64,000 nucleotides of DNA from Mobula hypostoma. Its lineage: Eukaryota. Below, piece after piece: positions 29,309 to 64,000 of the stretch (position 1 is its first letter; every line of letters starts with the position of its first letter). The position numbers and the translations under genes are program-made. Below the pieces are notes generated by a model that worked only from the letters and a program-made list of their open reading frames with translations, was not told where the DNA came from and ran no database searches. The stretch is from the NCBI RefSeq assembly GCF_963921235.1, contig NC_086097.1:141548001-141612000 (forward strand), written 5' to 3'.

Positions 29309-29460
29309 CTTTGTTATGTCGTACAGTATCAGGTTTAATTGCCACCAATGTATGCTCAACAGGAAAGAAAAACTGTAACTCCTTCACTGCAGTTTCAACG
29401 TCCTGACTCCCATGTAGTTGGTTAAATGGAATATCTTTGTATGCGAACCTTGCACGCAGG
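29309..29460 (-). CDS. NME8: Internal coding exon (152 bp, phase 2 in, phase 1 out) of a thioredoxin/NDK-domain gene, NME8 (TXNDC3)-like
   Basis: On the minus strand: acceptor ..TTCTGTTCTTAG| and donor AAAG|GTAAGT. Open frame LRARFAYKDIPFNQLHGSQDVETAVKELQFFFPVEHTLVAIKPDTVRHNK, i.e. an NDK C-terminus (NxxHGS..A..E..FFFP) running directly into the next NDK N-terminus (TL..IKPD). This tandem arrangement is characteristic of NME8. Confidence 0.85.
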
Positions 29461-31472
29461 CTAAGAACAGAATAAGGAATATATAAATAATTAACTTGGT
29501 TCAGAATTTGATGAAACAGGGAAAGATATCCTAATATTTCCAGAAAATCTCATCAGCATATGAAAACTTTGGGATCCCACAAGACTAGATACAAGATTGG
29601 TATCTTGGGTGCAGTCATCCCAACAGGACTGATCGCTATATGTTTTTTACAATACCTTTATGTAGTCAGCAAGTATGACCATAAGTTACCAGTCACTTGT
29701 TATTTTAATTATCCATTTTGTAATGCAGTTCAGATTCTCTGACCTCAATATGCTATGTTGTTCCATTGCAAATAATGTAGGCTCAAGGAAAAGCAACCTC
29801 ATCTTTGGACAACATGCATTACAGTCTCTGCTATTCACATTTCTACTTCCTCTGGACCAGTGATTCCCAATGGAGGTGGTTACGTGTCCTAAGTGGGGTT
29901 TTAGGGGAAATAGAAGTTGTCAGGGGGCGTTCAAGATTCTTGTGGGGGGGTGGTCAATAAGCGGCATCCTAACTTAAGGCATGAGACCAGACCGACCATT
30001 AGTAGAACAGGCACTTCCAAAAAAAAAGGATGAGGCACTGGAATATAGGAAGAACCATAGCTCTGCAGGCAGTAAGCACTCGTCATTACAACACATCTGA
30101 AACTCAGCAATCTCATCTGACCTTACCAACCAGACATTATAAGGCATGCGTAAATTAGCAACCAGGGTGCCCAAGAGTTCCCCTTGACTCGCAGCATGCA
30201 ACGCATTCATGCAATTTAACAGTTGGTAAGTCAAGTACACCCTTTCAACTTTCTCTCCAGATCTACAGAAAACAGGTCGCGCAATGATACAGTGCTGGTC
30301 AAAACCAAATGGTGAAATAGAGACAATCAGTGACTCCAAGGATTCCTCTTGAGGTGCTCAAAGCAACCTCAATTTCATATGTGCGGTGAGGAACCATCTT
30401 TGGAGATTATGAGACCTTACGTGATTAGTCAATCATGCTAATAGTATAAAGGTAGCTTGCCGAATACCAGCTCTATCCCGACTAACATTCAGATTCCAAT
30501 CTAAATCCTTGTCAACATAATTTTTGCTGATGTGATCACCTTCATCTTCGCCTCGCTGTTCCTTTGCATGCTGCTACCATTGTTCCATCCATGTCAACTC
30601 TCTGCTGTCGTCAAAATCCAATAAGCATTCCCAGTTTGTGTTAGTTTTTTATTTTACTTTAGCCCCGTTAATCATGGATAAATATGTACGACAGTGAAGC
30701 CTTGAACTCTAATCCTACCAAGAGACAGAAACTATAGAAAGTGCATCAATACAATGTTACATACCTGGAATACGGTTTTATTCAGTTCCCATCAGATCAG
30801 TGACACCCACTATGTCTAATTTGTAATACTGTATTGTCTAATGAAGCCATGAAACTATCAAAATTACAGGAACACTTCTGTAAAAGACACCCTGAAAAGG
30901 CTGCTTATGGTATTACTCAGTTCCAGAAGGTGAAAGAAGCATTTGAAAAGCACCGAACGTGCAAGTCATTTGCAAAGAAAGCTAAAAATGACCTTAAGAG
31001 TGGACTCATTGCTGCTTATAAGATTTCCGAAATTATGGCAAAGTGTGGAAAATCTCATAGAATTGGTGAAAGATTAATAATGTTTGCTGTATCAGAACTG
31101 CTTGCCACTGTTCTCAAAATGGATACCAGTGTTTTAAAATCAATTGCTCTGAGTAATAACTCTGCAGCTCATTGTATTGACAAAATGAGTGAAGACACTG
31201 AAAATCAACTATGCACAGCTACAAAAACAGAATTTGGGATACAACTGGATGAGTCAACTGTGCAAGACAATGAGGCATTGCTAATGGCATGTGTTATGAT
31301 TTATCCAAAATCGTAAAGTTTATGAAGAGATCCTCTTTTGTAGTAAGCTAAAAACAAATATCAATGGAGAACCAGTTCACAATGAGCTCAAAATGTATAT
31401 TGAGGATAAAAGTATTCCACTTAGGAACATGATCTCTTGTGCAACAGATGAACACCGTACATGACAGGTTGT

Positions 31473-31660
31473 GATCTCCCCCTTCCCCTCCCACTTTCAA
31501 ATCTCTTACTAACTCTTCCTTCAGTTAGTCCTGATGAAGGGTCTCGGCCTGAAACGTCGACTGTACCTCTTCCTAGAGATGCTGCCTGGCCTGCTGCATT
31601 CACCAGCAACTTTGATGTGTGTTGCTTGAATTTCCAGCATCTGCAGAATTCCTGCTGTTT
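31473..31660 (+). mobile_element. Penelope-like element terminal (pseudo-LTR) fragment with a 7-bp TSD AGGTTGT
   Basis: TSD at 31466-31472 and 31661-31667. Contains a hammerhead core and GATGCTGCCTGGCCTGCTG..CCAGCATCTGCAG, which is related to 59885-60045. Confidence 0.75.
31526..31563 (+). ncRNA. Minimal type I hammerhead ribozyme motif
   Basis: AGTC-CTGATGA-AGG(GTCTCGG)CCT-GAAA-CGTC-GACT. Stem I is AGTC/GACT, the core is CUGAUGA..GAAA, stem II is AGG/CCT, stem III is palindromic ACGT, and the cleavage triplet GUC is at 31556-31558. Confidence 0.75.
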
Positions 31661-32254
31661 AGGTTGTCACGCTGGTTTAGTGGCATTTATGAGAAAGGAA
31701 ATTCCAAATCTGTTTGCAATCCATTACGTAATTCATCGTCAATATCTTGCAGCCAAAAACCTCAGCCAGCGGCTTTTTTCAAGCATGACTCTTGTAATAT
31801 CTGGTATCAACAAAATTAAAGCTCATCCATTAAACAGCAGAATATTTTGCCAGTTATGCCAAGATAAGAATGAAGAGTTTGAATGTTTGCTACTTCACAC
31901 TGAAGAGCATCGGCTGTCAAAAGGCTGCTGCATAAAACATTTCTTTGATCTTTCTGACACTGTGGTTGAATTTATGCTCAAAGGTGACAAGAGCTTGGGA
32001 AACAAGATTGAACTTCTATGTGGAGATATGGTATACCTAGCCAATTTGTATGACAAAATTAACATTCTAAATATGAAATTACAGGGTGAGAATTTCAATT
32101 TAATCCAGGCAAAAAGTGCAGTGTCCACTTTTATCAGAAGATTGGAAATATATAAGCAAACTATTGCGTGAAGAATGTTCTCACAGTTTCCCTGCATGGG
32201 AAATATGGCATTCTCTTTCACAGATAGTGATTTACAGGAGTACTGCTTACACCT

Positions 32255-33078
32255 TGTTGGCCAGAAAGAATGATAATCTACAAATCAGTGAATTCAAATG
32301 AATCAAGGACAGTGGAAACAGTCTTTGTTCTTGCCGCATGCTTGGGGATGGAGGCTGCTATTTTGTGAAGACACTATTCTCTATTTTGTGAGCTTGACAT
32401 GCTGGGCTTGATCAATGTTTTAAAGGAGACACAATGATTCTTCAAGTAATCTGCTGGACTGGAGATCACTTCCAAATAAGAAGTTATTTGTGAGATGTTC
32501 TTTGGTTGGTTATAACATGCAGGTTTGTGAATGTTAGGGTTGATACCTGCCTGAAGTGATTCGAGCTCATTGCTGATTGAGAACAAAGAGCCATAAATTA
32601 TCCACTGTCACTTGAAAGGAAGAGGGCAATAAATTGATGCTGGCTTGGAGCAGAGCAAATAACAAGGTGTTAAAGGACAGACACATGTCCTGTGGCCAAT
32701 GACACTGGAATGCGATATTTGAATTGATAAGGAATGGATATAAAAATGGATGCTTTGTGTGTGCTGGTAGCGGTAACTTCGGAGAATAACCATCGCAGAT
32801 ACAAGTGTAAGCAACCCTGTGTGAAACACGTGACCAATGAATCTGGACAACGAGGAACGCCTGGCCAGCGTAAACTCCTTTGCCCGGGTAATACCTTTGC
32901 TATTCTTTGACTGGTCAGGAGAGTCAGGGATACTTAGTGGGTGTGCACACAAGGTATTTAGTGTATGAATTCACGTATTTGTTAGTTTGAACAATAAAGG
33001 TACTTGTCAGTAAATACAGATCTCTCTGTGCCTCACTAAGCATCGTTGTAAGTAGAAGTAGTATTTTTTTTCACAAAA
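32255..33078 (+). repeat. 5' LTR (824 bp)
   Basis: Direct repeat of 47502-47987 plus 51245-51586. CCAAT at 32696-32700, TATAAAAA at 32739-32746, AATAAA at 32993-32998. Confidence 0.95.
32696..32746 (+). promoter_or_regulatory. LTR core promoter (CCAAT and TATA boxes)
   Basis: GGCCAATG followed about 40 bp later by TATAAAAA, about 250 bp upstream of the LTR AATAAA. Confidence 0.65.
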
Positions 33079-33082
33079 GAAT

Positions 33083-33105
33083 TGGCGTCCCTGTTGTGGG
33101 CTTGA
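33083..33105 (+). promoter_or_regulatory. Primer-binding site, tRNA-Asn-like
   Basis: TGGCGTCCCTGTTGTGGGCTTGA, 4 nt after the LTR. The reverse complement of the vertebrate tRNA-Asn(GUU) 3' end is TGGCGTCCCTGGGTGGGCTCGA; the first 11 nt are identical. Confidence 0.85.
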
Positions 33106-33189
33106 GGTAAAATCTCCTGTTGAGTCAGCAAGAGACTCGAGCCAGGCCACGTGGGTGAGAAACAGAGAGAACGGGGGGGGGGGCTGGGT

Positions 33190-34994
33190 AGCTAGTTGGT
33201 ACTGACGCAGGATGAAGAATTTAGGGAAATCTGCAAGTCTGAAGGACTTAGATTGTTTTGATTGGAGGGGATTCCTCCAGAAGCACGTATTGGGGAAATG
33301 GCCACAATACGGGGAGTATGCTGGACATACCAGCGTGAAGGTGGTAAAATTTTTTTTAGAATTGCCAAAGGGAAATTGTTGGATAAAGAATTTAAGCGAC
33401 TACTGAAGCCAGTAGCAGTCACTTGCCTCATTGAGGAATTAATAGGAAATAGGCAAAACGGCAACGCTGAGCGAGTTAAGTTCGAAGACGAAAACAAGAG
33501 TCCGAAAGGAGTTAGAAGACGAATAAAAAAGAATCAGATAGATGTTAGAAGACCAAAACAAAATGCTCCGAAAGGAGTTAGAAATCCTCAAGGGAAATTT
33601 TACAGATGTACAGGGACAAAGAAGTATGGATTTGGAGCATATGAATCAATTTCAGCTGAAATGCGAGAAACTGGTTAATGAACAAAGTAAACGAGAAAGA
33701 GAAACTAATTTAGCCAAGAGCCAGGCAGAGGAATTAAAGAAACAGTGCAGTGATTTAAAAGCAGCTATAAATATGATACAGAGAGAAGAGAAGTAGTACT
33801 AGTGATCATACAAAGTGTTTAAAGCAGATACAAAAGCTGCAGGACCAACTTGCTGTACAGAGAGGAATAATATGTGCTTTTGGATCTGAAAGAGGGGAGG
33901 AGAATGAATATGCAGATATAGATTGGAACGGTTTAACAGATGATGCGACTAGATATGGTTGTGATAATGACGAAGTGCTTTTTGCTGAGGATCCCCTGCC
34001 CACATACAATGCTAAGGAATCATCAGTGCCAACGGCACCACTAGCCCCTCTAGTTACTATCAGAGAGGGAAGAGCTGGGGCAGGAAATCAAAACCAGAAT
34101 ATAACATACACTACTCCGTGTGGAGTACAGCAGCTCAGAGATATTGTCAAAGATATCAGGATTGTGGGTTCGGAGATGACCCTCCAGAACTGTTTCAAGC
34201 AACTAATCATCAGAGAATAATACACGGCTTAGATGATGCTGAGGAAAGTAAAATTGATTATAATGTGTTTACATCCAAATATACACTCAGCTATACAACA
34301 ACAAGGTGGGGGCATAAATGAGGAATTAAAGACGGCAATATTGACTGTTATGGGTATTAACAGAAGGAACCTGGTAGAGGCACTAGCCAAATGTTACTAG
34401 AGGAGAAGTGAACATCCCACTGTGTTTGCATCCCATTTATGGACGGTGTTCCAAGGAGTATATGGAACAGCATTAGATTGAGACCATTTAGGACCAGAAC
34501 GCTTAAATAGATGGTTAAGGACATTGGTGTCTCACTCCACCGATGAATCCAAAAAGGTATTAGCGATATTTGATCCCACTGAACCGACGCATAAAGAGGC
34601 ATGGATACTGAGGAAAATGAGTAGAGCATGGGAAAAGGAGACACAAAGGCTAAATAAACCTGCTAAGGGGAAATTGCTGCCTGTTGGAGGTAAGGCAACT
34701 ACCTGGAGAAATGAGGGTAGGCGACCCACCCCAAACATCACCCCACCACACTGTCAAATGACCAGGAAAACCAGAGGAAATGAAACAGTGTCGAGAACAG
34801 GGAGACTTGGAGGTGGAGTATTTAAATGCTATAACTGTGGTCAAGAGGGACACATCAAGAGAGAATGTCCAAACCTGAGAAGTGGGAGAGTAGAGCAAGG
34901 AGATTTGACCTTGGAGGGGCCAGACAGAACAAGCCCACAAAACAATGTGGTGGACACACTGCCATCTAGGGGATTGTACCCCGAACTTCAATGA
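33190..34994 (+). pseudogene. gag: ERV gag (frameshifted, with stops; start approximate)
   Basis: Fragments 33262-33678, 33542-33796 (coiled coil), 33975-34220 and 34524-34994, which contains the zinc knuckle CYNCGQEGHIKREC. Confidence 0.85.
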
Positions 34995-37900
34995 TGGTGT
35001 CCGGCCTCACTAACATGGGTGTGTGACACAAGGTGGGACAAGACTGGAAGACCTCTAGTAAATGGTAAGGTCAGAGGCCGCCCTGAGATGCCTACTGGTT
35101 GTTGATGGAGTAACAGCTTTTTGTAGCTGCTCCTATATTACTTACTTTGCTGTTTCCAACCTGTTTTGAAATCTTACTTTTAAACGTAACATTGTTTTAT
35201 TATGAGGGGTGCCAAAGGTAAAAAAGAAGAGGACCCTCCTGCAACTTTGGAATCTATTACTGAGACGCTTCGGAAACATAAAAAAGAATTTTCTGAAGAG
35301 TTCCAGCAACTCAGTACTGAAATTAAATAAATTGATGTAAAATTGGACTCGATTCAAAAAACCTTAATTGAACATGATAAACGATTACAGGAGAATGAAG
35401 ATACTCTGACAATTTTAGATGCGAAAATTGAAGACCTGCAACAGCTTTATGAAAAACAGTCAAAGTCTAATGAAAAATTAAGACAGAAGATTATTGACTT
35501 AGAAAGCAGAAGCAGAAGAAATAATCTACAAATTCTGGGTCTTGAAGAGTTAATGGAAGGTAATCAGCCTACAGAATTCTTTGCAAACTTCTTGGCAAAA
35601 TTATTTCCAAAAATTTTAAAATTTGATCGAGCCCATAGATCGCCCATGCCCAGACCTGCCGTGGAAGAGAGACCCTGATGAGTGATAATCTGTTTTCATG
35701 ATTTTCAAACAGAAGAACTTTTAATTCGTGAATCCCATCAAACAGGTATGATTGATTACAACGGTCAGAAGATCAGAATTGTCGAGGATTTTTCACCGGA
35801 GGTGATGAATGAGCACTTCAAGTTTAAAAAGGTTCTGTCAGAACTGTATAACAAAGGTTTCAAGCTGTCTCTCCGTTATCCTGCTCAGCTCAGAATTATT
35901 TTGAGAAATGGTTCTCAGAACTGGCTCTGTTCGATACAAGAAGCTCAAGAATTTTTAGAATCAGGAGACTAATTGTTTAATATCTTCCTACATGAATAAT
36001 TGCTTCTTTTACTTTTGGTATACCTTTGCAGCTAACTCTCTTTTTGAACTCTTTAATGCTTTACTTAGAAAATAAGGTTTTAATGAGATAATACCTTGTG
36101 TGTTAATATGTTTTGAACTTTGATAGGTTTTTTAAAATATTATATATTATACTTATTTTTTCGAGTTTTTTCTTTCAATAAGGTTTAGTTTGCTTTATCT
36201 CATGTTTTGTCTAGGTTGGAATGCAGTTAACCTTGGAAATTTATTTAGAGCTATGCCAGCAGGTTTTTTTTGGGATAGCAATGTCATTAGGTTCAGCTGT
36301 CGACTATCTATTGGTTGGCTTTTTGATTTTGGGTGGGGGGTTGGGTGTTTTCTTTTCTGTAAGCTGTTTTGGTCTCTTAGCCACACTTGTTGCCTGGGTA
36401 CCCTATCTCAAAGTTCACTGTTTGGATTTAATATACATTCCAGTGGTTACTATTTTAACCTTTCTTTTAAGTAGTATTAAGAATGGATCATACTATTAAT
36501 TTACTTAGTTTTAATGTGAAAGGATTAAACCACCCTGTGAAACGGAATAAGATATTTACCTACATTAAAAAATTTAAGGTCCCAATTATCTTTTTTACAA
36601 GAAACTCACATTCGTAAATGTGACAATGTACACCTCTTTAGTCATTGGAAAGGACTTCAATTTCATTCCTCCTTTCAGGATAAGTCTAGGGTAGTTTCGA
36701 TTTTTATAGATAATAGAGTTTCTTTTGTTCAACATAAAGTAGTGTCTGATACCAATGGCCGTTTTACTACAGTATCAGGAAAATTAGATAATAAATTAAT
36801 GGCATTTGCTAATTTGTATGCCCCGAATATAGATGATCCAGGGTTTTTTGAGCGTTCTTTTTTTCACTTTTGCCAGATTTAAGTCTTTACTTACTGGTCT
36901 TGGGCGGAGATTTTAACTGCTGGTTAGACCCAGTTTTAGGTCGATCATCTTCTAAACCAGTGACACTTAGTAAATCGGCCTTGTTTATTTAATCTTTTCT
37001 AATGAAATGTGATATTGTTTCTTACATCCAATAGAAAAGGAGTACTCATTTTTTTCCCATGTCCATTATACATATTCTGGGATTGATTATTTTTTTACTG
37101 ATAGCCAAATGATTCCATTAGTTTGATCCTGTGAATATAAAGAGTTTGCTGTCTCAGATCATGCACCTGTGTTTTATCTTTAAATATCTCTGGTCTCCCT
37201 CAAATAAACAGATTTTGGCATTTTAATCCAACTTTGCTATCAGATAAGGATTTTTAAAAATTTTTGGACAGACAAATTACTCTTTTTTTTGAAGAAAATA
37301 CACGGGAAGAGACTTCTAGTCTTATTATATGGGATACCTTTAAGGCTTATATTAGAGGACAAATTATTTCTTATACTGCAAATGTTAAGAAAAAAGCTAA
37401 TAAAGAGAGAATTGAATTAGCTAATCAGTTGAAACAATTAGATCAAAAATATGCCTTGGCTCCAGAACCTAAAAGGCATGTTGAATTTAAAACCAAATAT
37501 GATCTTCTTTTAACATATCCAATTGAAACTCAACTCCTAAAAGATAAAAGTTAATTTTATATTCATGGAGACAAAACAGGTAAATTATTGGCTAACCAAT
37601 TAAAAACCTTTATAACTAAACAGCAAATTAAAGAAATTTGTAAAGCTAATGGTAATAGGACAACTGATCATTTAGAAATAGGTGATACCTTCAGAGAATT
37701 TTATTCTAACTTTATAGTTCTGACCCTCCTAAAGATAATACTGTAATGAATAATTTCTTAGACCAATTAAACATCCCTACACTTTCCGATGACAACCAAA
37801 AACAGTTGGATCAACCTATTTCTTATGAGGAAATTGCCGAGGCTGTATGTTCATTGCACTCAGGGAAGGCTCAGGGTCCTGATGGATTTTCTGGAGAATC

Positions 37901-40900
37901 TTATAAGGCTTTTCCCTCATTGCTTATACCGCACTTATATTCAGTCCTCTCGGTCTCCTTTAAGTTGCGTAGGTTGCCACAATCTTTTTATGAAGCTTCT
38001 ATTTCACTTACTCTTAAAAAGAATAAGAACCCAACTGAATGCTCTTCATATAGACCAATCTCCTTACTTAATGTTGACACTAAAATCCTATCCAAAGTTT
38101 TGGCTCGTAGGATTGAAAATATTTTACCATCTATCATTTCTGACAATCAGACTGGATTTATTAAAAGTCAATATTCCCACTTTAATATTCATTGTTTATT
38201 AAATGTTATTTATTATCCTTCTAAAGAGATATTGGAATGTGTGATATCCTTAGATGCTGAGAAAGCTTTCGATCGGGTTGAATAGAATTATTTATTTAAA
38301 ACTTTAGAAAAATTTAATTTTGGGTCTGATTCTATTCAATGGATTAAATTACTTTACTTATCTCCCTCTGCTCGGGTTCTTACTAACTCTCAGAATTCCA
38401 AACCATTTAAACTTCAACATGGAACTAGACAAGGTTGTCCTTTGAGCCCTTTGCTTTTTGATCTGGCCTTAGAACCCTTAGCTATTGCTTTTCGAGAATC
38501 TAATGATATCAGTGGTATTTTAAGGACAGGTACTATTCACAAAGTTTCGCTTTATGCCGATGACCTATTACTTTATATTTCTAATGTTGAGACTTCATTA
38601 CCTTCCGTACTTTCCTTACTCTCCTGTTTTGGTCAGTTTTCAGGATATAATCTAAATTGTCATAATAGTGAACTTTTTCCTTTGAATAATTTGGTAGCAA
38701 TTAATACTAACCTTTCTTTTAAAATTCTAAGAAATCAAGTTACTTATTTGGGTGTAACAATTACTAAGAATTATAAATACTTATTTAAAACAATTTTTTT
38801 TACCCTACTGAATTATGTAAAAAGGGCATTATCAAAATGGTTGCCCCTTTCATTATCGTTGATTGGCCAAATTAATTCTATTAAAATGAATATCTTGCCT
38901 AAGTTTTTATATCTTTTTCAGGCCTTACCCGCTTTTATTCCTAAATCCTTTTTTGATTCTCTTGATTCTATCATATCTTCATATATATGGAAAAATAAAC
39001 TTTCTTGACTAAATAAAGTTCATCTTCAAAAAGCTACAAAGAATGGAGGTTTAACGTTACCAAATTTTAGGTTTTATTACTGGGCAGTCAATATATGGAA
39101 TCTCACGTTTTGATCATATTATATTAACCGAGAGGACTGTCCAGTTTGGGTTTCTTTAGAAGCTAACTCTGTTAATAAATTTTCTATCACCTCTCTTCTC
39201 GGATCCTCAATTCCTTTATTTTTAAGTAAACTGATAGTTTTGTAGTTAAACATACTTTGAGGATTTGGCTACAATTTAGAAAATATTTTGGTTTATTGAG
39301 ATTCTCTCTTTCAAGTCCCATTTTTTCTAACTATTTTTTTAAACCTTCTATGACTGATGTAGTTTTCAAAGATTGGGATAGATTGGGTATTAAGTGCTTC
39401 CAGGATTTGTTTGTTGGAGGAAGTTCCTTTTCGTTTGAGCAGTTGTCAGCTAAATATAGCTTACCAAAAACCCACTTTTTTCGATATTTACAAATTAGAG
39501 ACTTTCTGCAATCTCAATTACATACATTTCCTAAAAGTCCCGATAAGAATTTATTAGATATAATTTTTAATTTGAAACCTTTTCATAATGGATCAATATC
39601 TAATATTTTATGGTATGTTGTTGGGAATGAGAAACGTTCCTTTAAACAAAATTATAAATCTCCGGGAACAAGACTTACAGACTTCAATTTCTGAGGAAAC
39701 TTGGAATGAAATTTTTAAATTGGTTAATACCTCATCGTTATGTGCCCGTCATTCTCTCCTACAATTTAAAGTGGTCCATAGGGCCCACATGACTAAAGAT
39801 AAGCTGTCTCGTTTTTATTCGGATATATCTCCCTATTGCGACAGATGTAACAATGGAGAAGCTTCATTAACTCATATGTTCTAGACATGCCCGAGTCTTG
39901 AAAAATATTGGAAAGAAGTATTCCAAACTTTTTCTGTACTTCTCAGAGTAAATTTTAAACCTAACCCTTTGACTGCCTTATTCGGTATTGTTGGAGGAAA
40001 ATATATTATCTTGGAGACACCTGATTTGCACATTTTGGCTCTTATTTCTCTTATAGCTAGGAGGGCGTTGTTGCTTAAGTGGGAGGATGTTGCTCTGCCT
40101 ACTCATGCTCAATAGTTAAGCGATGTTATGTCATGCTTAAATTTAGAGAAGATTCGTTGTTCAATCTCTGAATCTAGAAAAAACTTTCTAACATTGTGGG
40201 GACCATTTTTGAATTATTTTCAAAATCTTTGATTTGTTATTATGTACAGATGTTGGCTAATAATATGTTTTACTATATGATAAGGATTTTTTCTTTTTTC
40301 TTTCCTTACCAAACAGCTTTTCTTGTTAGTGGGTTTAGATTTTTTTTTTGTATAATAAAATCATTACTTTTCAATATTACGATTCAATCTAATTTACATG
40401 AATATGGGGTAATGAGACTATAAGTGTGATTTAAATATATTGTAATTGATATATAATATATATCCTCCTGTACTGTGTATTCTTTTATGTAAGAAATCAA
40501 TAAAAATATTAAAAAAGAAAAAGAGGCTGCCCTGTTACCTTCTCATGGGATACTGGAGGATCCCGAACCACCGTCAACACCACTAACGTAACTAACGCAA
40601 ACTGGGAAATACAAGGTAAGATTATCTTTAGTGGATTTACAGGACATTCACAAGTGGGACATGTAAGTACACCCTTAGAAGTTAGAATAGGAGACATAGC
40701 ATTAGAACATTTGATAGTGCTAGTTGAATTACCTCGGGAGCAGGAACTTGTACTGGGGAGTGATTACATGGCCAAAGCGGAGTTTGTTTTGATCCAGTTA
40801 ACTGTATGATTTGGTGAGTGCCAACTGGTATGAATCTCATGTGCCACAGACAGATTCCAGTAGGTGGATATCAGGATAGAATATGCACCATGGGTGAAAT

Positions 40901-43900
40901 GTGGATAAAACCAGAGGAGATGAGCAATGCTCACATGGTACAGCAAATCATTGCACAGAACTCAGGGCATTTGCACAGTACAAGTATGACTGCAGAAAGA
41001 TGGCTGGCAGTGTGTGCATACAAGGTCCAGACCCCAAACCACAGAAGCAATATGGGTTTCCCAAAGAAGCTGAGGAAGATGTGATAGGTAATACAGAGTT
41101 TGGTACAACAAGGGGTACTGAGGCCGGTAGCCTCAACTAATAACTCACCCATATGGCCAGTGAGATTGACAATAGACGATCGAGAGCTGAATAAAGTAAC
41201 CCCTTTAACAGCCCCGACTGTAGCAACTAACCCAGAAACAGTAGTCAAACAGAATGAAAGAGCACAATGGTTTACAGTTTTAGACATAAATAATGGATTT
41301 TCGTCTATCCCACGAGAAAGAGAGTGTCAATACAAGTTTGCATTTACCTTTCAGGGACAGCAATATACATGGACTGCCTTACCACAGGGGTTCCATAATT
41401 CCCCATCTATATTTCACTAACATTTAGGGGAAGGGTTAAAGCGGTTCTCAAAGCCTGAATGCTTGGTCCAATACGTAGATGATCTACTCCTGCAGACTGG
41501 ATCTAATCAGGAACATTATCAGCTATTGACAGAACTACTGCAATTATTGCATGCATTGGGACTAAGGGTAAATCCTAAAAAAGCACAGGTGATGAAACAA
41601 AAAGTTAGTTATTTAGGAATGACCTTGACACTGGGAGAAAGAGAAATTGAAAAATGAAGAGTAGAATCAGTTATGAAACTGCCTATTCCCCAAGATGTGA
41701 AAAGGCTGAGGTCCTTTCTGGGGCTGATAGGCTACTGTAGGGATCACATTGATGGATTTTCCACTAAGGCAGCTCCTTTAATGGAGTTACTGAAAAAGAA
41801 TGTGGCACGAGAATGGAAATCAGAACACACCCAGGCCATCACAGACCTGAAGCAAGCACTGGCCACGGCACCTGCTTTAAAAACCCCAAATCTGAATGAA
41901 CCATTCTCACTGGAGATGGCTACAACTGATACCACCCTCTCAGCAGTCCTATTACAGGAGACGCATGGGAAGTTAAGACCAGTAGCATATGCATCACGCA
42001 TGGTCTCACCAGTAGAACAGGAGTATACTGTATGTGAAAAACACTTATTAGCGATTTTCTAGGCAGTACAACATTTCACCTACATAGTGGGATTTAATCC
42101 ACTTACAATATTGACAGAACATACCCCCATACAATTACTGTTAGATGGAAGGGTTAAAGATGGTTCAGTAAGCCAAAACAGAATTGCTAGATGGACATTG
42201 CTGTTGCAAGGGAGAAATATAACTGTAAAACGAGTAAGTACCACCACTATGTCTGGTGTACCAAGGTGGTGAACATGAGTGTCAGGTTATGATAGCAAAT
42301 GATCCCAAGGGACCATTTGTATCAAAACAAAAAGGAGGGGGTAGAGGCAAATCAGACAAAGTAATGCCTGAGACCAAAGACACAAAAGAGAAGGGAAAAC
42401 CCTATTTAAAAATTTTTGTAGATGGCTCCTCATTAGTACAGGATGGTGATGAGAGGAGAACTGGGTGTGGCATATATGTAGAGGATGAACATGGACAGGA
42501 AAGGTATAGTATAGCATTAAAGCTACCCAAAACCATGAGTGCACAGGCAGCAGAATTGGCAGCTGTAGCATATGTGGTTAGCCACCCAGAATGTTTTCCA
42601 CCTGGATCAGTCATACACGCCAATAGTATGTATGTTTGTAACAGCCTTACAGAACATTTGCCTCTGTGGGAAGCAAGAGGGTTTGTTTCAGCTGACAGAA
42701 AGCCCCTCCCATCTGCTGCTCTGTTGCAATACATATTTGAAGCAAAGGAGAAAGAATATGGAATTGTAAAGGTGAAAGCCCACTCTAAATCATCCCCTAA
42801 AGGGAATAGGAAGGCTGATGAGTTAGCAAAGCAAGGTGCTTTAAATGGGCAGGACTGACAGTCACAGATTGGGGAGATGGGAAGGCAGAAGGAACAACAG
42901 ATTAAGGTTATTGATTTAATCGAGGAGCAGAAGAAGGATGAAGAATTTTTTTAAAAATAGAAGGAGTAGGGTCAGAAATGTATGAAGAGCACAAGGGTGT
43001 ACATGTTAAGGATAGAGTAGTCCTATGTGAAGGAAAGTTTGTGGTCCCAGAGGGAGGAAGAAATCAGATGATCCACTGGTACCATGATTTATGGGGACAC
43101 CAGGGATCTGAAAGCACCCTGGAAAAGATAAAGGAAGTGTGTTGGTGGCCTAGGATGAAGGACCATGTGGAACACTATGTCAAGAATTGTTTGATTTGTG
43201 TACAATATAATCCTGACGGAAATGTAAAGAAAGGAGCCCTCTGACCTAACAGACCAGTGGAAGAACCTTGGACTAATTTGCAGATAGATTATGTTGGACC
43301 CTTGCCACCCACCACAGGAGGGTACAAATATATCCTTGTAGTAGTAGATACTTTCACCAAATGGGTGGAAGCTTTCCCAACGAAGAGCAACACGGCCAAA
43401 GCCACCGCAAAAATCTTACTGGAAAGGGTTTTTACTCACTGGGGATTACCTTGGAGTATAGAGTCAAATAGAGGCACACATTTTACAGCCCAGATAATGC
43501 AAGATGCCATGGCACTTTTAGGGATTAAGCAGAGATTTCATATACCCTACAGACCACAGTCTAGTGGAATTGTGGAAAGGAAGAACCAGACTTTAAAAAA
43601 TATGATGGCCAAAATGGTGCAACAACATCGAACAACATGGCAAGTAGTTTTGCCTTATGCATTGATAATAATAAGGAATACAGTGGCATCTTCAAAAGGT
43701 TACAACCCTTAGAAACTCATGACTGGAAGAAACACGAGAGGGTTAGAGGAGTTGTTAGGATTAGATATGTCAGAACCTGAAATAGATGGAATTGAGTCAG
43801 AAAAGTGGGTACAACAGTTGGTAGAGATACTGAAAGAGGCCAATTATGTGGCAGCCCATCAAATAGGAAAGAAGAAGCAATAGAGTAAAGCCTACTTTGA

Positions 43901-44441
43901 CTCTAAGGTCAGTCCCATAAAATTAAGCCCAGGACAAAGAGTGATGATTAGAATATACCAACCCACTTCATTTTTAAATCCAAGGTTTTCAGGGCCCTAT
44001 GAAATCATAGACAAAGCAAGTCCATCAGTACACAGGGTACTAACTTCGCCAGATAAAAGTGGATGATATCCCATCAACGAGTTGAAATTGGTGGGGGAGA
44101 AACAGGAAAATTATCATCATCAGCACATAACAATTGATGCACATGATAGTCCTAATTTTGGAGACTGGACAATTGATGTATGTGATAGTTCTGATTTGGA
44201 AGATCTGAGTTTGGAACAGTTATTCCAAGAAGATGGCAACAGATCTGACCAAGGAGGAGTTTTTCCATTTTCTCAGTCTGAAAAACAGGGGAGGTTTGTA
44301 AAGAAAATGAGGAGAAGAAATACATTGGTTCCTGCCTCCACTATCCTGAAACGAAATTGGGTGAGAAAAGACGTACGACTTGAGTCCAAAGACAATTGGG
44401 AGCCCAGATTGCATGGGTTGGAAAATCAGATAGAAAAGTAA
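34995..44441 (+). pseudogene. pol: ERV pro-pol (protease split by L1; RT, tether, RNase H, integrase)
   Basis: GRPLVNGKVRG.P|VTFSWDTGGSRT (DTG at 40549-40557). RT: NSPIWPV, VLDINNGF, LPQGFHNSP and YVDD (41472-41483). Tether RPVAYASR. RNase H: IFVDGSS..AQAAELAA..GNRKAD. Integrase: H..GH..C..C, QIDYVGPLP, SSGIVERKN and GPY. Confidence 0.93.
35086..40521 (+). mobile_element. Full-length L1 LINE (decayed) with a 13-bp TSD
   Basis: TSD AGAGGC(C/T)GCCCTG at 35073-35085 and 40522-40534. ORF1 35202-35972 (DLESRSRRNNL, DRAHR). ORF2 36483-40232 (SFNVKGLN, GGDFN, YRPISLLN, LDAEKAFD, GTRQGCPLSP, YADD, C-terminal CCHC-like CDRC..HMF). AATAAA plus A-rich tail. Confidence 0.95.
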
Positions 44442-44505
44442 TTTAAGATTGGAACTGGAAATAAGAGCAGATATTACCCTTGTGTATTTACAGGTTTAAT
44501 TCAAT

Positions 44506-47358
44506 ATGAAGCCAATAATGTATTTTATGGTGAAGAAGATGGCGGCGCGCCTGCATGTGCACAGCCCTCTGGTGAAAAATGATATTGTATCTGTCAAATG
44601 GGGCCATGGACAATTCTGATTTGATGAAGAATGGAAGTGAAAGCACCGAGGAACATCTGGAGAAATTTCTGAAACACCCATTCGCTGCTGTCGTTCGGAG
44701 GGTAGGCCTCAAAATCCCCGGCCTTGCCTGCTTTTGGCGATCGAGAAGGAGGTCGAATCGTTCGGACAGAGATGGCGCTTAGTACCTGGTGTCGGAGAGC
44801 TGATCAGAGCTCGAAGTTTTCGGATGACTCAGAGTTGGATTGTGGTCGGCATGGCAGGGAGAGTTTTTCTTCCTTCTCCCGTCTGCGTGAGATGTGGGAC
44901 ATTTGAGAAACTTTGAACTTTACTGTGCTCATGGACTTCTTCATCAAGTTATGGTATTGTTGCACTGTTGTAACTATATGTTACAATTATGTGGTTTTGT
45001 CAGTTTTTTCAGTCTTGGTCTGTCCTGTGTTTTGTGATATCACACCGGAGGAAATAATGTATCATTTCTTAATGCATGCATTACTAAATAACAATAAAAG
45101 AGGACTACGTGTCTTCATAATCTAAAAAAATTGACCATGACTGGATTCATGATTGGTTGTGCTTCAGAAACATTACTGCGGATGAACTTATCAACAACAA
45201 CTTCATTATACGAAGATTATTCGGTGATCAAAAGCAATTTTTCTCAACGGACATGGGTAATACCGGCACATGTGGAAGAAATGGAAGACTCGAATTTGTA
45301 TTATGCTGGGGTAGATGGTTTGATGTGCGTGGATAAATATTCCAGAGGGTACAAAGGTACAATTCCTATGTAATAAAATTTTAGAAGTTACGTTGTTTAG
45401 TAACCCAGAGGGGATAATTATTAGTCAGTTTTTAGGCCCAATTATTGAGCAACCTTCAGGTGATGATGGCCACAGTAAGATTACAGTTCTGTGGGATCAC
45501 TCTCAAGTGAATATTGAGTGATCTACACAAGAGATATGTCGATTGGGGTGGCCACATCAAGCATTTCTCAAAGATTGTTTCTTTTGTTATAAACTGTCCA
45601 CAGGAGGATGTAGTACACGGGGAGAGTAGAATGGAAAGGACACTAAGGGACACTGAGTAAGAGTTTCTGTCAGGGCCCAGGTCCTTTCAGGGTTTTCAAA
45701 ACTAAGGAAATTGACCACTCCACAACCCCAATTAACTGAAACTACACACCAGAGCCTAAATGTAGTGAGACTCAACGTAATACAAATGGGGTAGGATTAG
45801 TGCTAGACAGGGGAATTTGTCACTTTGGTACCAGGGTACCAGCACGTGCAGGTAATTTTTAATTTAACTGAAATAATGGTGCCTGAATGGTGCTCTTCTA
45901 CAACGAAACAATTATTTACTCACCTTCTTGGGAGACAACTAAACAGGAGTGAATTTAGGTCAGTCAAAAATAGAAAGAAGAGAGGACTATTGGAATTAGT
46001 GGGAGCAGGTTATGCATCAGGGGTAACAACAGTTAATACCTTAGATATAGCAGAATTGGAAAATCAGATACAGTCTCTTCAGCTAAAAATGCAGGACATT
46101 ACGGAGGAGAATTATCAGGATCAGATGCAAACTAGTCAAATTGGTCGGAGTGCATCACATGTAATGCTGGATTCACTTAAATTTTTGAAACCACTTCAGG
46201 ATACAACAAATTTGATAACTGACCACATAGACCTCCTATCTAAAGGAACACGTAAAGCAGAGATCTATGCTACATATACTAGTTGGAAGCTCGCCATGGT
46301 TGGTACAAATTTATTACAACTTGATGCATATCAAGTGCCAAATTGGATATCAGATGAGAAATTGATAGAATGGGTTGGAGAAGAGGTTCCCTAATGTCAT
46401 ATTAGAAGTCTTACATTAACCAATAGAGTACTGGCTACTTGTGACGATAGTAAAGGGAGGTTTTATGTAGGTGCAGTAGTCCACATTCCCCATCATGGAA
46501 ATAATTTCACTTACTGCTTGAAAAGGGTTCACAATGTAGGTAAATATCATGAGAATACTTGGATATTCTTAAGCAACCCACCAAAACATGCTATTGTTAT
46601 GAATGGTACAGTATTGGAAAAGGGATAGATTTATCGAAATGTCATCCAGGGGGAAACCACTGGGCTTGTCCAGAAGAGATGACGAGACAAAAACTTGTGG
46701 ATTCTGGTTTCAATACTTATGAGAATTGTTCATTGTCTATTTTGCCTGTGAATAATAATTCTTTTCTGCAGTATGCGCTGGTGGGATGAACATACTGTAT
46801 TATATAGCAACATCAGCCACGAGTTATACCAAGGGATGGAAAGAGTGTCCTTTGGAAAGTTACAATGTTGCATTTGGGAATGTGACTTTAAATTTGACTA
46901 TTGGAGGACAAACTTTGCCTCAACCAGCAGTGGAGAAGGTGGTGGAGGAAAGTCTTGCAATCGAATGAACTGATACAGATCGATATTTGTGGGACTATGT
47001 TTTAACAGAGTTGTCACCGATTCCTCATTTGACTGCAGGCTGGACACGAGTGGTGGAGGAGGCAAAGGAGATAATTCATCAGTGGACTGAACATACAAAA
47101 GTTATTAAGACACATGCTGAGAAGGCAAATGAAATACTGAGTGACTCAGACTTTTGGGATAAATTTTGGAATTGGGGATCAAATGTTCAAATACATCCAT
47201 GGGTGAGGATAATCTCACATGCTGCTGTAATATTAATTTTTTGAACACTAATGATTGTTTTATTTAATGTGTATCAACTTAGAAGATGAAAGGCTGAAAT
47301 TATGCAAAAGGTAGAGGGGAATGATTTTGCAATACTGAAAAAACAATGGCCAGTATAA
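44506..47358 (+). pseudogene. env: ERV env, class I fusion glycoprotein resembling pneumo/paramyxovirus F (decayed; interrupted at 44530-45130)
   Basis: Reconstructed signal peptide MKPIMYFM|LTMTGFMIGCAS. Furin site RKKR at 45972-45983, followed by GLLELVGAGYASGVTTVNTL and a heptad repeat. Then a Cys-rich region, a C-terminal helix, Trp-rich FWDKFWNW, a hydrophobic TM and a short tail. Confidence 0.85.
44530..45130 (+). mobile_element. Non-coding ~600-bp retroposon, copy 3 of 3, inserted in the env signal-peptide coding region
   Basis: Starts GAAGAAGATGGCGGCGCG, ends AATAAAAGAGGACTACGTGTCTTCATAATCTAAAAAAA, and is homologous to 15000-15654 and 17724-18376. Confidence 0.82.
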
Positions 47359-47488
47359 AAAGTGTATGAATTTAGTAAGTAAATGTTATAATGTAAGTGC
47401 AGCACACCTACTGGAGATCCATGGCAATCCAATGGATGGTACACAGAATACAGGAGAATAGTGATCCTAAGCTAAATATCTTTGGATC

Positions 47489-47501
47489 AAGAGGAGGGAG
47501 A
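47489..47501 (+). promoter_or_regulatory. Polypurine tract
   Basis: AAGAGGAGGGAGA immediately before the TG start of the 3' LTR. Confidence 0.9.
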
Positions 47502-47987
47502 TGTTGACCAGAAAGAATGACAATCAACAAATCAGTGAATTCAAATGAATCAAGGACAGTGGAAGCAGTCTTTGTTCTTGCCGCATGCTTGGGGATGGAG
47601 GCTGCCATTTTGTGAAGACCCTCTATTCTTCATTTTGTGAGCTTAACATGCTGGGCTTGATCAATGTTTTAAAGAAGACACAATGATTCTTCAAGTAATC
47701 TACTGGACTGGAGATCATTTCCAAATAAGAAGTTATTTGTGAGATGTTCTTTGGTTGGCTATAACATGCAGGTTTGTGAATGTTGGGGTTGATGCCTGCC
47801 TGAAGTGATTCGAGCTCATTGCTGATTGAAAACAAAGAGCCATAAATTATCCACTGTCACTTGAAGGGAAGAGGGTAATAAATTGATGCTGGCTTGGAGC
47901 AGAGCCAATAACAAGGTGTTAAAGGACAGACACATGTCCTGTGGCCAATGACACTGGAATGGGATATTTGAATTGATAAGGAATGGA
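47502..47987 (+). repeat. 3' LTR, first part (U3)
   Basis: About 96% identical (hand count) to 32255-32738. Confidence 0.95.
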
Positions 47988-50900
47988 AAACGATGGGTTC
48001 CACCTGAACTCAAAGGGTACTAATATCCTGGCGGGATTGTTTAATATAGCTGTTAGGGAGGGTTTAATCTATGTTAGCAGGGGGAAGGAAACCAGGGTGT
48101 TAGGGTCGAGGAAGAGGAAAATAGAAATAAGTCAAAGATACTGTGCAGCAAAGATGGCAAGAAGGACAGACAGGTGAACAGACAGGATAATTTGCTGTGC
48201 AATAGAAATATAGCAAAATTGGTATCAGATACTGATCTAAATGTACTGTACTTAAATGCACGCATTAGAAATAAAGTGGATGACCCTGTTGTACAGCGAC
48301 AGGTTAAAAGATATGACATTGTGGCCATCACCGAGTCATGGCTAAAAGATGGATGTGATTGGGAGCTGAATGTGCAAGGATACATAGTGTATAGGAAAGA
48401 TAGGAAGGTAGGTAAAGGGGGTGGCGTGGCCCTGATGTAAGCAACGATATCAAGTCACTAGAAAGAAGGGACAGAGGATCAGAAGAGGTAGGATAATTAT
48501 GAGTCGAGCTAAGAAATGGCAAGGATAAAAAGACACTAATAGCAGTTATATACAGGCCTCCAAACAGCAGCTGGGATGTGGACTACAAGTTACAGCTGGA
48601 AATAGAAAAAGCATGTCAGAAGGAAAGTGTCAAGATAATGATGGGGGATTTTAATATGAAAGTGGATTGGGAAAGTCAGGAATGTACTGGATCTCAGGAG
48701 AGGGAGTTTGTAGAATGCCTATGGGATGGCTTTTTGGAGCAGCTTGTCCATAAGCCCACCAGGGGATCGCCTGTTTTGGACTGGGTGCTGTGTAATGAAC
48801 CTGAGCCGATTAGGGAGCTGGAGGTAATGGAACCCCTTGGAAGTAGTGATCATAATATGATTGAGTTCAGTTTCAGATCTGAAAAGGAGAAGCTGGCATC
48901 AGGCGTATCGATATTTCAGTGGAGCAAAGGAAATTACAGTGTTATGAGAGAGGAACTGGCCCAAGTCGATTAGAAAAGTAAGCTAGATGGAGGAATGGTA
49001 GAGCAGAATTGGATGAAATTCCTACAAGAAATAAGGAAAGTGCAGGAAAAATATATTCCAAGAAAAAAGAAAATCATGAATGGAAAAATGGCACAAATGT
49101 GGGAGCGCCGTGCTGCGGGAGGGGTGGCAAGGAGGGAAGACCTACAGGAAGGGTAATGAGGAGGGAGTGCCGAGCTGCGGGATGGGGTGGGTGGGGGTCG
49201 AGGAGGGAGCACACTGCATTGAGGAATGGGCAGCGAGACGGGAGCACCACAAGAGAGGTTAAGACTAAAATATAAGCAAAAGAGACGGCAAACAAGGACG
49301 CAAAAATTAGTGGGAAAACTGAGGACTGGACGACTTTTAAAAACTTACAGAAGGAAACTAAGAAAGCCATTAGGAAAGAAAAGATGAATTATGAAAGGAA
49401 GTTGGCAATTAACATAAAAAAGGATACTAAAGAGTTTTTTTAAATGTATCAAGAGTAAAAGATTGACACGGGTAGATATAGAACTGATCGAAAATGATGC
49501 TGGAGAAATTATAATGGGTAACAAAGAGATGGCAGAGGAACTAAATGAGTATTTTTCATCAGTCTTCACAGTGGAAGACATCAGCAACATACCTGACAGC
49601 CAGAGGTCTCAGGGAATAAAATTAGCTACAGTCAAGATTACTAGAGAGAAAGTGCTTGGGAAGCTAAATGGACTAAGAATAGATAAGTCTCCCGGACCGG
49701 ATGAGGTGCACCCACAGGTTCTGAAGGAGGTGGCTTTGAAGATTGTGAAGGCTTTGGAAATGATCTTCCAGGAATCAATAGACTCTGGCATGGTACTGGA
49801 GGAAGGTCGCAAATGTAGTTCCGCTGTTTGAGAAAGGAGGGAGGCAGCAAAAAGAAAATTACAGACCTATTTGTCTGGCATCAGTAGTTGGAAAGTTATT
49901 GGATTCAACCCTCCAGGACGAGGTTAAGAAATACCTCAAGGTGCATGACAAGATAAGCCCAAGCCAGCATGGTTTCATGAAGGGAAGATCCTGACTCACC
50001 AACCTATTGGAATTTTTTGAGGTAATCTCAAATCAGATTGACAAGGGGGAGGCTGTGGATGTTGTGTATTTGGATTTTCAAAAGGCCTTCGATAAGGTAC
50101 ACACACGAGGCTGCTTAATAAGATGAGAGCCCATGGAATTACAGGAAAGATATTGGAATGGGTGGAGCATTGGCTGATAGGCAGAAAGCAAAGGGTGGGA
50201 ATAAAGGGATCCTATTCTGATTGGTTGCCGGTTACTAGTGGTGTTCCGCAAGGGTCGGTGTTGGGGCCGCTTCTTTTTACAATGTATATCAATGATTTAG
50301 ATTATGGATTAAATGGTTTTGTGGCTAAGTTTGCGGATGACACCAAGATAGGTGGAGGAGCAGGAAGTGTTGAAGAAACGGAAAGGTTGCAGAGAGACTT
50401 GGTCAGTTTAGGAAAGTGGGCAAAGAAATGGCAGATGAGATATAATGTTGAGAAATGTACGGTTGTACATTTTGAAAGAAGAAATAATCCGGCAGATTAT
50501 TATTTAGATGGGGAGAAAATTCAAAAATCGTAAGTGCAAAGGGACTTGAGGGTCCTCGTGCAGGATACCTTAAAGATTAACCACCAGGTTGGATCGGCAG
50601 TAAGGAAAATGAATGCTATGTTGGCATTCATTTCAAGAGGAATAATGTATAAGAGTAAGGAGGTGTTGATGAGGCTCTATGGGACACTGGTGAGACCTCA
50701 TTTGGAATACTGTGTGCAGTTTTGGGCCCCCCTATCTTAGAAGGGATGTACTGATGTTGGAGAGAGTTCAGAGAAGATTTACGAGGATGATTCCTGGAAT
50801 GCAGGGGCTAACATATGAGGAGCGTTTGTCAGCTCTTGGACTGTATTCATTCAAGTATAGAAGAATGAGAGGGGATCTCATAGAAACATTTCGAATGTTG

Positions 50901-51244
50901 AAAGGGATGGATAGAGTAGATGTGGAAAGGCTGCTTCCCTTGGCGGGCGAGTCCAGGACAAGAGGCCACAGTCTTAGAATTAGAGGGTACCCATTTAAAA
51001 CAGGACATTTTTTTTCGCCAGAGGGTCGTGGATTTATGGAATTCGTTGCCACATACAGCTGTGGAGGCCCGATCATTGAGGGTGTTTAAGGAGGAGATTG
51101 ATAGGTATCTAATTAGTCAGGGTATCAAAGGATATGGGGAAAAAGCTGAAAATTGGAACTAGATGGGAGAATAGTTTAGCTCATGGTGAAGTGGCGGAGC
51201 AGACTCAATGGGCTGAATGGCCTACTTCTGCTCCTCTGTCTTGT
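47988..51244 (+). mobile_element. CR1 LINE, 5'-truncated, inserted in the 3' LTR
   Basis: ORF2 fragments 48174-48440, 48578-48973, 49463-49831, 50123-50533 (PQGSVLGP, FADD) and 50534-51089. 3' end GGCTGAATGGCCTACTTCTGCTCC. Confidence 0.93.
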
Positions 51245-51586
51245 GATATAACAGTGGATGCTTTGTGTGTGCTGGTAGCGGTAACTTTGAAGAGTAACCA
51301 TTGCAGATACAAGTGTAAGCAACCCTGTGTGAAACACGTGGCCAGTGAACCGGGACAACGAGGAACGCCTGGCCAGCATAAACTCCTTTGCCTGGGTAAT
51401 ACCTTTGCTATTCTTTGACTGTTCAAGAGAGTCAGGGATACTTAGTGGGTGTGCACACAAGGTATTTAGTGTATGAATTCACGTATTTGTTAGTTTGAAC
51501 AATAAAGGTATTTGTCAGTAAATACAGATCTCTCTGTGCCTAACTAAGCATCGTTGTAAGTAGAAGTAGTATTTTTTTTCACAACA
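51245..51586 (+). repeat. 3' LTR, second part (TATA/R/U5)
   Basis: About 95% identical (hand count) to 32737-33078. AATAAA at 51501-51506; ends in CAACA. Confidence 0.95.
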
Positions 51587-51770
51587 ACCTGCAGTCACTG
51601 AAGAAGGATTTTCAGAAACAATTTAAGGATTTGAATGATCTGGAAATTCCAGACTGGATAATTTCTTTGCAAGGTGGAAGAACAGGAATATAGCTTTTAA
51701 GAAGAAATTAACAAAATTCAGAATGATGAAGAAGCAACAATGGTTTTCGAAAATGTTGGCTTTTGTGGTA
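51587..51770 (+). pseudogene. hAT transposase continuation
   Basis: LQSLKKDFQKQFKDLNDLEIPDWI.. continues the reading interrupted at 32254. Confidence 0.8.
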
Positions 51771-63400: not shown

Positions 63401-64000
63401 ACCCCAGCCACACTGTCAGCTCTGGCACTCTGGTTCCCATCCCCCTGCAAATCTAGTTTAAAGCCCCCCCCAATAGCATTAACAAACCTCCCTGAAACGA
63501 TATTGGTCCCCCTGTAGTTCAAGTGTAACCCGTCTCTCTTGTACAGGTCCCACCTGCCCCAGAAGATGTCCCAATTATCCTGAAATCTGAAACCCTGCTC
63601 CCTACACCAGTTCCTCAGCCACTTGTTCATCCTCCAGTGCATCTTATTCCTACCCTCACTGGCATGTAGCACAGGTAGCAATCCTGAGATTACCACCCTC
63701 GAGGTCCTGCTTTTCAACTTCCTACCAAGCTCTCTATACTCACTCTCCAGGACCTCCTCACTCTTCCTTGCTATGTCATTGGTACCAATGTGCACCATGA
63801 CATCTGGCTGATCACCCTCCCACTTCAGAATGTCATGCAATCGATCAGAGACATCCTTGACCCTGGCACCCGGGAGGCAACAAACCATCCTGGATTCTCT
63901 GTCACGACCACAGAACCTCCTATCTGCACCTCTAACTATCGAGTCCCCTATCACTACCGCTCTCCTCTTTTCCCCCCTCCCTTCTGCACTGCAGAGCCAG
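60497..64000 (-). mobile_element. Young CR1 LINE running off the window edge; same subfamily as 51866-54905
   Basis: ORF 63118-63954 (ORF1 esterase reading into the endonuclease), 61728-63143 (471 aa) and 60800-61669. (CCATAGAA)n tail. Confidence 0.95.

Follow-up and report, generated by a model that had tools for sequence, protein, structure and literature searches.

Which retrovirus left the decayed provirus that occupies positions 32255..51586 of a 64,000-nucleotide stretch of the Mobula hypostoma genome (contig NC_086097.1, 141,548,001 to 141,612,000; hereafter the window), and what has become of its relatives in the same genome? The original prediction described this element as a lokiretrovirus, on account of an envelope similar to F proteins, and suggested that it could extend the host range of that lineage to cartilaginous fishes. 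The analysis presented here identifies the provirus as a new member of an already known deep group of the Retroviridae, for which SnRV-like, after the snakehead retrovirus (SnRV), seems the best available label. It also directs attention to a related but older provirus on another chromosome, whose env gene we strongly infer to have been kept by host selection in at least three rays. The explanation as a whole, a deep SnRV-like provirus together with an env captured from an older family member, appears very probable to us. The captured env weighs more than the provirus, and the finding is worth following.

Classification of the provirus

At motif B of the reverse transcriptase (RT) the element reads LPQGFHNSP and SnRV reads LPQGFHASP, versus PFG in all 24 lokiretrovirus rows of a published supplementary alignment (PMC7947760). 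By identity across the RT domain, SnRV is the nearest named virus (46%), ahead of epsilon/gamma-like sequences (38-39%) and lokiretroviruses (34-36%). A careful 34-row RT tree excluded Ty3/gypsy rows (support 100/100), gathered the lokiretroviruses in one clade (100/99) and put the element on the retrovirus side (100/98), within a 97/93 clade that also holds frog and coelacanth 'NYNRIN-like' Pol proteins; a quick tree of 66 rows placed the element identically. When grouping was assessed on RT with the approximately unbiased (AU) test, a clade with lokiretroviruses was rejected (p=0.0008) and a clade with SnRV was not (p=0.36 and 0.41). The element also fell outside the gamma/epsilon, class II and foamy clades in the RT trees. 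Membership of the Spumaretrovirinae was considered and set aside, as the foamy clade of the 34-row tree (100/100) formed without the element and the element's gag carries a CCHC knuckle, which foamy gag is not known to have; fish foamy-like rows were absent from these trees. By its RT, dual RNase H and env, the provirus is a member of the Retroviridae and not of Ty3/gypsy, as had been predicted.

Amino acid identity of the integrase is higher to lokiretroviruses (38-41%) than to SnRV (31%), and these BLAST identities suggested a mosaic that joined an SnRV-type RT to a lokiretroviral integrase. The mosaic was ruled out by the integrase tree and by the AU test, which rejected a clade with lokiretroviruses (p=0.005, with eight rows of the element's group and two lokiretrovirus rows); the high identity is explained by short branches. 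Judged by RT motif B, the RT trees and the AU tests for both proteins, the provirus is not a lokiretrovirus, and hence it does not extend the lokiretroviral host range to cartilaginous fishes. A search of the whole genome (3.48 Gb in 200 contigs; all copy counts are floors) for the exact lokiretroviral RT motif pattern gave 0 matches, and a lokiretroviral Pol query, run with a stricter first look, had the provirus family itself as its best match, at 35% (53 scored of 29,137 candidates). A true lokiretrovirus elsewhere in this genome was found by neither motif pattern nor protein query, which is not proof of absence. A peptide search for frog and coelacanth matches in the accessible part of the lokiretrovirus supplement found 0, consistent with those Pol proteins not being lokiretroviral.

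The 66-row RT and 42-row integrase trees were built in quick mode, and the careful sets comprised 34 (RT) and 24 (integrase) rows, leaving out beta/delta rows, near-duplicates and long-branch rows (P0064, P0202, P0134, P0148 and similar). Lokiretrovirus rows P0130, P0139 and P0158 were matched by eye to Loki-Lca, -Lro and -Oja, and an eel row was given its lokiretrovirus label only after the 66-row RT tree. The SnRV references, P0116 and locus L073 (10,688 nt), match the published SnRV row, and the published length of SnRV is 10,688 nt (PMC12193657). The closest RT relative of the element (67-70%) was P0081, a JGI metagenome contig of 3,070 nt that is probably host DNA of another fish. Four further Pol proteins (P0014, P0015, P0017 and P0018) carry a foamy-like PVPKP motif and formed an RT clade of their own (99%), outside the foamy viruses.

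The provirus envelope

The recognisable part of the provirus env (45807..47290, forward strand) runs through three frames with stops and encodes a furin site (RKKR), a fusion-peptide-like stretch, heptads and a transmembrane region; its 5' part is unrecognisable, even when aligned to the intact relative described below, to which the env is 46-49% identical. No Pfam Fusion_gly or PDB sequence match was obtained for the provirus env, the intact relative or the SnRV env. In the ESM Atlas, the first matches of the intact relative (0.94-0.95) were to clusters bearing Fusion_gly, with template modelling scores of 0.45-0.50 to F0 and baculovirus-F models (for a low-confidence model, with a predicted local distance difference test (pLDDT) value of 0.48), and the SnRV env matched the same kinds of clusters at 0.92-0.93. 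Around the cleavage site, the SnRV env is weakly similar to the env of this family (27% over 122 aa, pairwise E=2e-4). Two single-sequence AlphaFold models of env (mean pLDDT 38 and 36) were too poor to inform, and Foldseek searches with them returned nothing at E<=0.001 in the viral and PDB libraries.

It is on language-model features that the provirus env is likely to be F-like, and this component of the original prediction stands as probable, albeit with no Pfam match behind it. The further premise that an F-like Env defines lokiretroviruses does not hold, since the SnRV env scores likewise. The protein would have been a furin-cleaved class I fusogen, F-like and of a non-gamma type. An F-like env outside the lokiretroviruses bears on whether F-type fusogens are the ancestral retroviral envelope; four scenarios for the origin of the retroviral F-type env have been laid out (PMC7947760).

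Competing placements of the provirus

Several points weigh against the SnRV-like placement and must be set beside the evidence above. The best RT tree puts SnRV with the remaining retroviruses (94/95) and not as sister to the element's clade, so that SnRV-like is a nearest-name label and not a proven clade; integrase identity favours lokiretroviruses over SnRV; the Fusion_gly and PDB searches gave no sequence match; and the trees were built without named ERV-L, fish foamy-like, Odin, CGIN1 and CmiERV rows. The same trees can be taken to depict a lineage of its own, comprising elements from rays, frogs, coelacanth and perhaps turtles, that branched off after the lokiretroviruses and before SnRV, foamy viruses and orthoretroviruses. 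Both the best RT tree and the best integrase tree place these rows basal on the non-lokiretroviral side, apart from SnRV, and short branches would account for their integrase identity to lokiretroviruses; if so, all Retroviridae would have inherited from their ancestor an F-like env and an integrase that is slow-evolving and Loki-like. We nevertheless find a separate lineage unlikely, though it deserves some weight, because the fork between this lineage and SnRV has no star (94/95), the AU test leaves a joint clade with SnRV standing, the SnRV and foamy integrases join as long branches, and Hayward 2015 and Xu 2018 may already cover the basal grade with their 'SnRV-like' or Huo group.

A chondrichthyan lokiretrovirus would share with the element the tether plus RNase H, the F-like feature matches of the intact relative and the integrase identity, and would be new, given the negative chondrichthyan genomes in the lokiretrovirus survey cited below; set against the difference at motif B, the AU rejections by both RT and integrase and the F-like result for the SnRV env under the same test, it is highly improbable. 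An env-bearing, errantivirus-like Ty3/gypsy element is less credible again, to the point of being negligible: the Atlas feature matches do include gypsy as well as baculovirus-F clusters, but the dual RNase H, the LPQG motif and the exclusion of gypsy rows from the retrovirus side all contradict it, as do the PDB scores (197 bits for murine leukaemia virus, 155 for foamy virus and 131 for Ty3). The SnRV-like placement is retained in what follows.

An intact env gene of the same family on another chromosome

The sole database homologue of the provirus env (one of 2,594 candidates) is a 745-aa stingray protein, from Hypanus (XP_059838750.1), at 48% identity; also in the homologue cluster are a Hemitrygon protein of the same length, 745 aa (XP_072911529.1), and a 319-aa Hypanus piece. 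The stingray protein, used as query with a stricter first look, has 77 matches in the Mobula genome (1,147 candidates, 60 of them scored), and the one at C2:126,459,298-126,461,511 is the only full-length open match, the others being partial or interrupted by stops. Its frame of 733 codons (C2:126,459,313-126,461,514; L087:1516-3717) is identical to the Hypanus protein at 679/733 positions (92.6%) and to the Hemitrygon protein at 682/733 (93.0%), without gaps; all 15 of its cysteines are kept in both, and a predicted furin site (RRRR) lies at residues 279-282. In a motif scan of this protein, CKS17-like, CxxC and CX6-7CC motifs were all absent and one CX6-7C was present. The predicted product is a furin-cleaved, membrane-anchored protein of class I fusogen type. 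The 319-aa Hypanus piece (P0241) is 95% identical to the captured env, lies on the same chromosome and is a possible duplicate. At another locus in Mobula (C21:139536827-139537750, L096), an open frame of 548 codons contains another env match, with a second piece adjoining in a different frame.

The provirus that contains the C2 gene, at 126.45-126.46 Mb of a chromosome other than that of the window, belongs to the same family and is older. The relics of long terminal repeats (LTRs) that flank the gene match the window LTR at 69-72% and differ from each other by a Kimura two-parameter (K2P) distance of 0.18 in the best block, and of pol only short frameshifted pieces are left. The stingray proteins start MTCSSATLW-YSEM, and a first exon encoding MTCSSATLW was found 9.4 kb upstream of the C2 env (C2:126449848; L108:848-875), outside the 5' LTR relic and followed by a GT donor; it is identical at the protein level in Mobula and the stingrays, and a pyrimidine tract and AG stand directly before YSEM. 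A contig of another organism fits from this acceptor on, with 64 unmatched letters before it; that the run in question is RNA is a guess. The first exon is itself part of an old interspersed repeat, for which the genome gave 614 candidates at 67-88%.

Env and both flanks recur at about 91-97% in contigs from three other organisms, the flanks at about 91-95%. In run X8, one coding piece shows 14 differences in 480 nt and no gap, versus 89 in 1,217 nt plus 8 gap letters in two flank pieces (Fisher p=0.0004, for pieces picked from those displayed). In simulations of neutral decay without indels, an intact frame survived in 1.4% of runs when 0.05 changes per site were applied and in 1 of 3000 when 0.085 were applied; with indels, it stayed open in 0-1 of 3000 runs (0/3000 at 0.085). 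Three considerations weaken the case for capture. The contrast between coding sequence and flanks comes from three displayed pieces of one run, with 3,521 pieces beyond those displayed; selection is judged by simulation and this contrast rather than by codon-level ratios of nonsynonymous to synonymous change (dN/dS); and the C2 gene lies outside the window, as a cousin of the provirus env (48% aa identity) and not a part of this provirus. The frame might also be open by chance, or through slow chondrichthyan mutation. Shark rates may be very low (2.2e-10 is assumed in PMC4422223), protein identity of 93% by itself fits few changes, the many env copies in the genome offer many chances, and the proposed capture is read from sequence. 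We regard such chance survival as rather improbable, given that the C2 LTRs are 0.18 apart and pol is in pieces, that three species share the whole frame without a gap, together with a conserved upstream exon, and that simulated frames hardly ever stayed open at 0.085 changes per site.

A captured gene is the reading we prefer: live-bearing myliobatiform rays probably possess an F-like, non-gamma env as a host gene, spliced to a repeat-derived start exon and intact across stingray families. In rays, such a gene might serve to fuse cells, function in the uterus or block receptors against viruses. The likeliest roles would be cell-cell fusion in some tissue, at somewhat less than an even chance, and, slightly more tentatively, receptor interference against related viruses; a specifically uterine role is doubtful. 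The rays in which the gene is conserved nourish their embryos with uterine secretions (histotrophy). The C2 env offers a direct way to test what part viral envelope capture plays in the viviparity of chondrichthyans or in their defence against viruses.

The history that we propose begins with a retrovirus that probably belonged to the deep SnRV-like branch of the Retroviridae (clade Huo, class III) and was primed by tRNA-Asn. In the germ line of a ray of myliobatiform type it inserted into an old DNA transposon, duplicating 4 bp of the target. This provirus then decayed and received the three insertions, of LINE-type (long interspersed nuclear element) or other repeats, that are seen in the window. 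The older family provirus at the C2 locus lost gag, pol and the integrity of its LTRs while its env frame stayed open, and this env would be joined by splicing to the short exon in another repeat 9.4 kb upstream. Its product would most likely be a glycoprotein of the cell surface that brings about cell fusion or keeps related viruses from their receptors.

Relation to known retroviruses and captured envelopes

Several features separate the ray provirus from SnRV: an LTR of 824 bp versus 518 bp, an integrase with only 31% identity, the lack of any 3' open reading frame seen in the ray provirus, and a tRNA-Asn-like primer-binding site where SnRV has another sequence. The SnRV primer-binding site is of the tRNA-Arg type. 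SnRV and clade Huo likewise combine a CCHC gag with a tether plus RNase H (PMC12193657, PMC6001957, PMC4977317), and the tether with a second RNase H, being common to SnRV, is therefore not specific to lokiretroviruses. Clade Huo is reported to infect all major vertebrate lineages (PMC6001957), clade III RTs predominate among chondrichthyan endogenous retroviruses (PMC11089739), and a complete SnRV-clustering provirus, CmiERV lineage I, was published from the elephant shark in 2015 (Han 2015, PMC4422223). Compared by its description, that provirus is likewise chondrichthyan, 9.56 kb long with an LTR divergence of 0.033, and its host is a holocephalan as opposed to the batoid here. For lokiretroviruses, 0/6 chondrichthyan genomes were positive in the published survey (Wang & Han 2021, PMC7947760). 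The provirus itself reads as one more SnRV-like cartilaginous-fish fossil. With lokiretroviruses, as described there, it has in common the gag-pol-env layout, the dual RNase H, a furin-cleaved and probably F-like env and a similar-looking integrase. It is unlike them in RT motif and tree position, and it gave neither a PF00523 match nor an smc-like match (no SMC family match among the gag-region pieces scanned, in a region that is broken).

Syncytins, percomORF and the chondrichthyan syncytin-like Env resemble the C2 env in being open frames within decayed proviruses, conserved across related hosts and spliced, as the C2 env is predicted to be; those captured envs are of gamma type, whereas the C2 env stems from a class III-like lineage. 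Two 2026 screens for chondrichthyan env genes required an immunosuppressive domain (ISD)/CKS17 together with CX5-7C or CX6CC (PMC12813294; bioRxiv 10.64898/2026.05.06.723177). Since such gamma-type motifs are absent from the C2 env, published syncytin screens would miss it. The main text of the bioRxiv report mentions neither Hypanus nor Hemitrygon nor the locus identifier, and no report of the C2 gene was found in the literature searched, the supplements of both screens being outside its scope. The captured non-gamma env in rays appears to be new.

Organisation and insertion site of the provirus

Pfam recovered the gene content predicted for the provirus in the expected order: zf-CCHC, aspartyl protease, RVT_1, RT_RNaseH (tether), a second RNase_H, Integrase_H2C2 and rve. 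Stops, frameshifts or both interrupt all genes of the provirus. On the forward strand, gag (33212..34994) extends over several frames, with a single CCHC knuckle near its end (zf-CCHC E=1e-8), and is followed by a frameshifted protease region (34995..40870; gag-asp_proteas E=1.5e-6) that is split by an L1-like insertion, with the DTG motif positioned after 40535. The RT, with its LPQG and YVDD motifs, and the tether (41088..42272) share one frame with three internal stops; the second RNase H (42238..42858; RNase_H E=5e-18) is in a frame different from that of the RT, and the integrase (42942..44066), with HHCC, core and GPY, contains internal stops. An acidic/basic stretch of 124 codons without a family match continues in the integrase frame (44067..44441) and may be an integrase tail or an accessory exon; the C2 locus may have a comparable acidic stretch ahead of its env.

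Three secondary insertions, as predicted, interrupt the provirus. An L1-like LINE (35086..40534, forward strand) has a 13-bp target duplication with one mismatch, a 601-bp interspersed repeat with an A-run end (44530..45130) is without a clean target duplication, and a CR1-like LINE (47988..51244, forward strand) lies inside the 3' LTR. The net length is 10,025 bp (19,332 - 9,307, by arithmetic only), against the roughly 10 kb expected. Copies of the 601-bp repeat within the window are 72-83% identical, and pieces of an A-run repeat of about 600 bp lie at 44530-45130, 17797-18364, 15435-15641 and 15047-15146. Two CR1-like LINE stretches (51885-54818 and 60515-63435), 8.6 kb apart and 93-98% alike, reflect either a LINE family of recent origin or a duplication of this region.

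The 5' LTR (32255..33078, 824 bp) reads TGTTG...CAAAA and the 3' LTR (47502..51586, split by the 47988-51244 insertion) TGTTG...CAACA, both on the forward strand, so that the ends originally given for the pair are right for the 3' copy and wrong for the 5' copy. Comparison of the two over 824 sites gave 28 transitions and 11 transversions, 39 substitutions in all (K2P 0.049, standard error 0.008), close to the approximately 37 of an earlier hand count. Both predicted priming sites were located on the forward strand: the primer-binding site (33083..33103) is complementary to the 3' end of the host tRNA-Asn(GTT), its first 11 nt pairing and the remainder imperfectly so, and a polypurine tract can be read at 47489..47501. 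The predicted target-site duplication ACCT is present at both ends (32251..32254 and 51587..51590, forward strand), inside a degraded transposase (30804..32254, resuming after 51590, forward strand) that has a weak Pfam match to the Spin-doc zinc finger and that we take from its motifs to be hAT-like. The transposase frame reaches the left ACCT copy and resumes beyond the right one. At four examined solo-type LTR loci, the 4-bp duplication was perfect in two, matched at 3/4 letters in one and gave no match in one.

Family copies, host and age

The family consists of many copies, mostly solo LTRs and broken proviruses. Sibling copies, for which a genome-wide LTR search had been proposed, proved abundant (2,894 candidates, 40 of them scored at 87-94% identity apart from the self-match), and the RT query gave 173 candidates and 41 matches, at 81-89% apart from self. 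Of 29 sibling RT loci, 0 were open over 95% of the match. The host was placed with an NME8/TXNDC3-like exon in the window (29310..29459, reverse strand), which is 94% identical to the Hypanus stingray, with lower values for skate (82%), four sharks (66-81%) and a teleost (49%); these are all seven matches, from nine candidates. RAG1 was also located in the genome, as a single open exon. By this exon, the host is a batoid ray and probably myliobatiform, in keeping with the chondrichthyan host proposed at the outset. Published substitution rates of 2.2e-9 (PMC7947760) and 2.2e-10 (PMC4422223) convert the LTR divergence into an insertion age of 11 to 112 million years, a spread that limits the statement of age to tens of millions of years and agrees with the old insertion predicted. 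Three equal-scoring RT copies at C9:200385336-200433966, spaced about 23.8 kb apart, may be a tandem segmental duplication or an assembly artefact. The genome also contains several fully open gypsy-like Pol frames of 1,400-1,580 codons (e.g. C80:24470135, C5:96223562), which suggests that LTR retrotransposons have been recently active in it.

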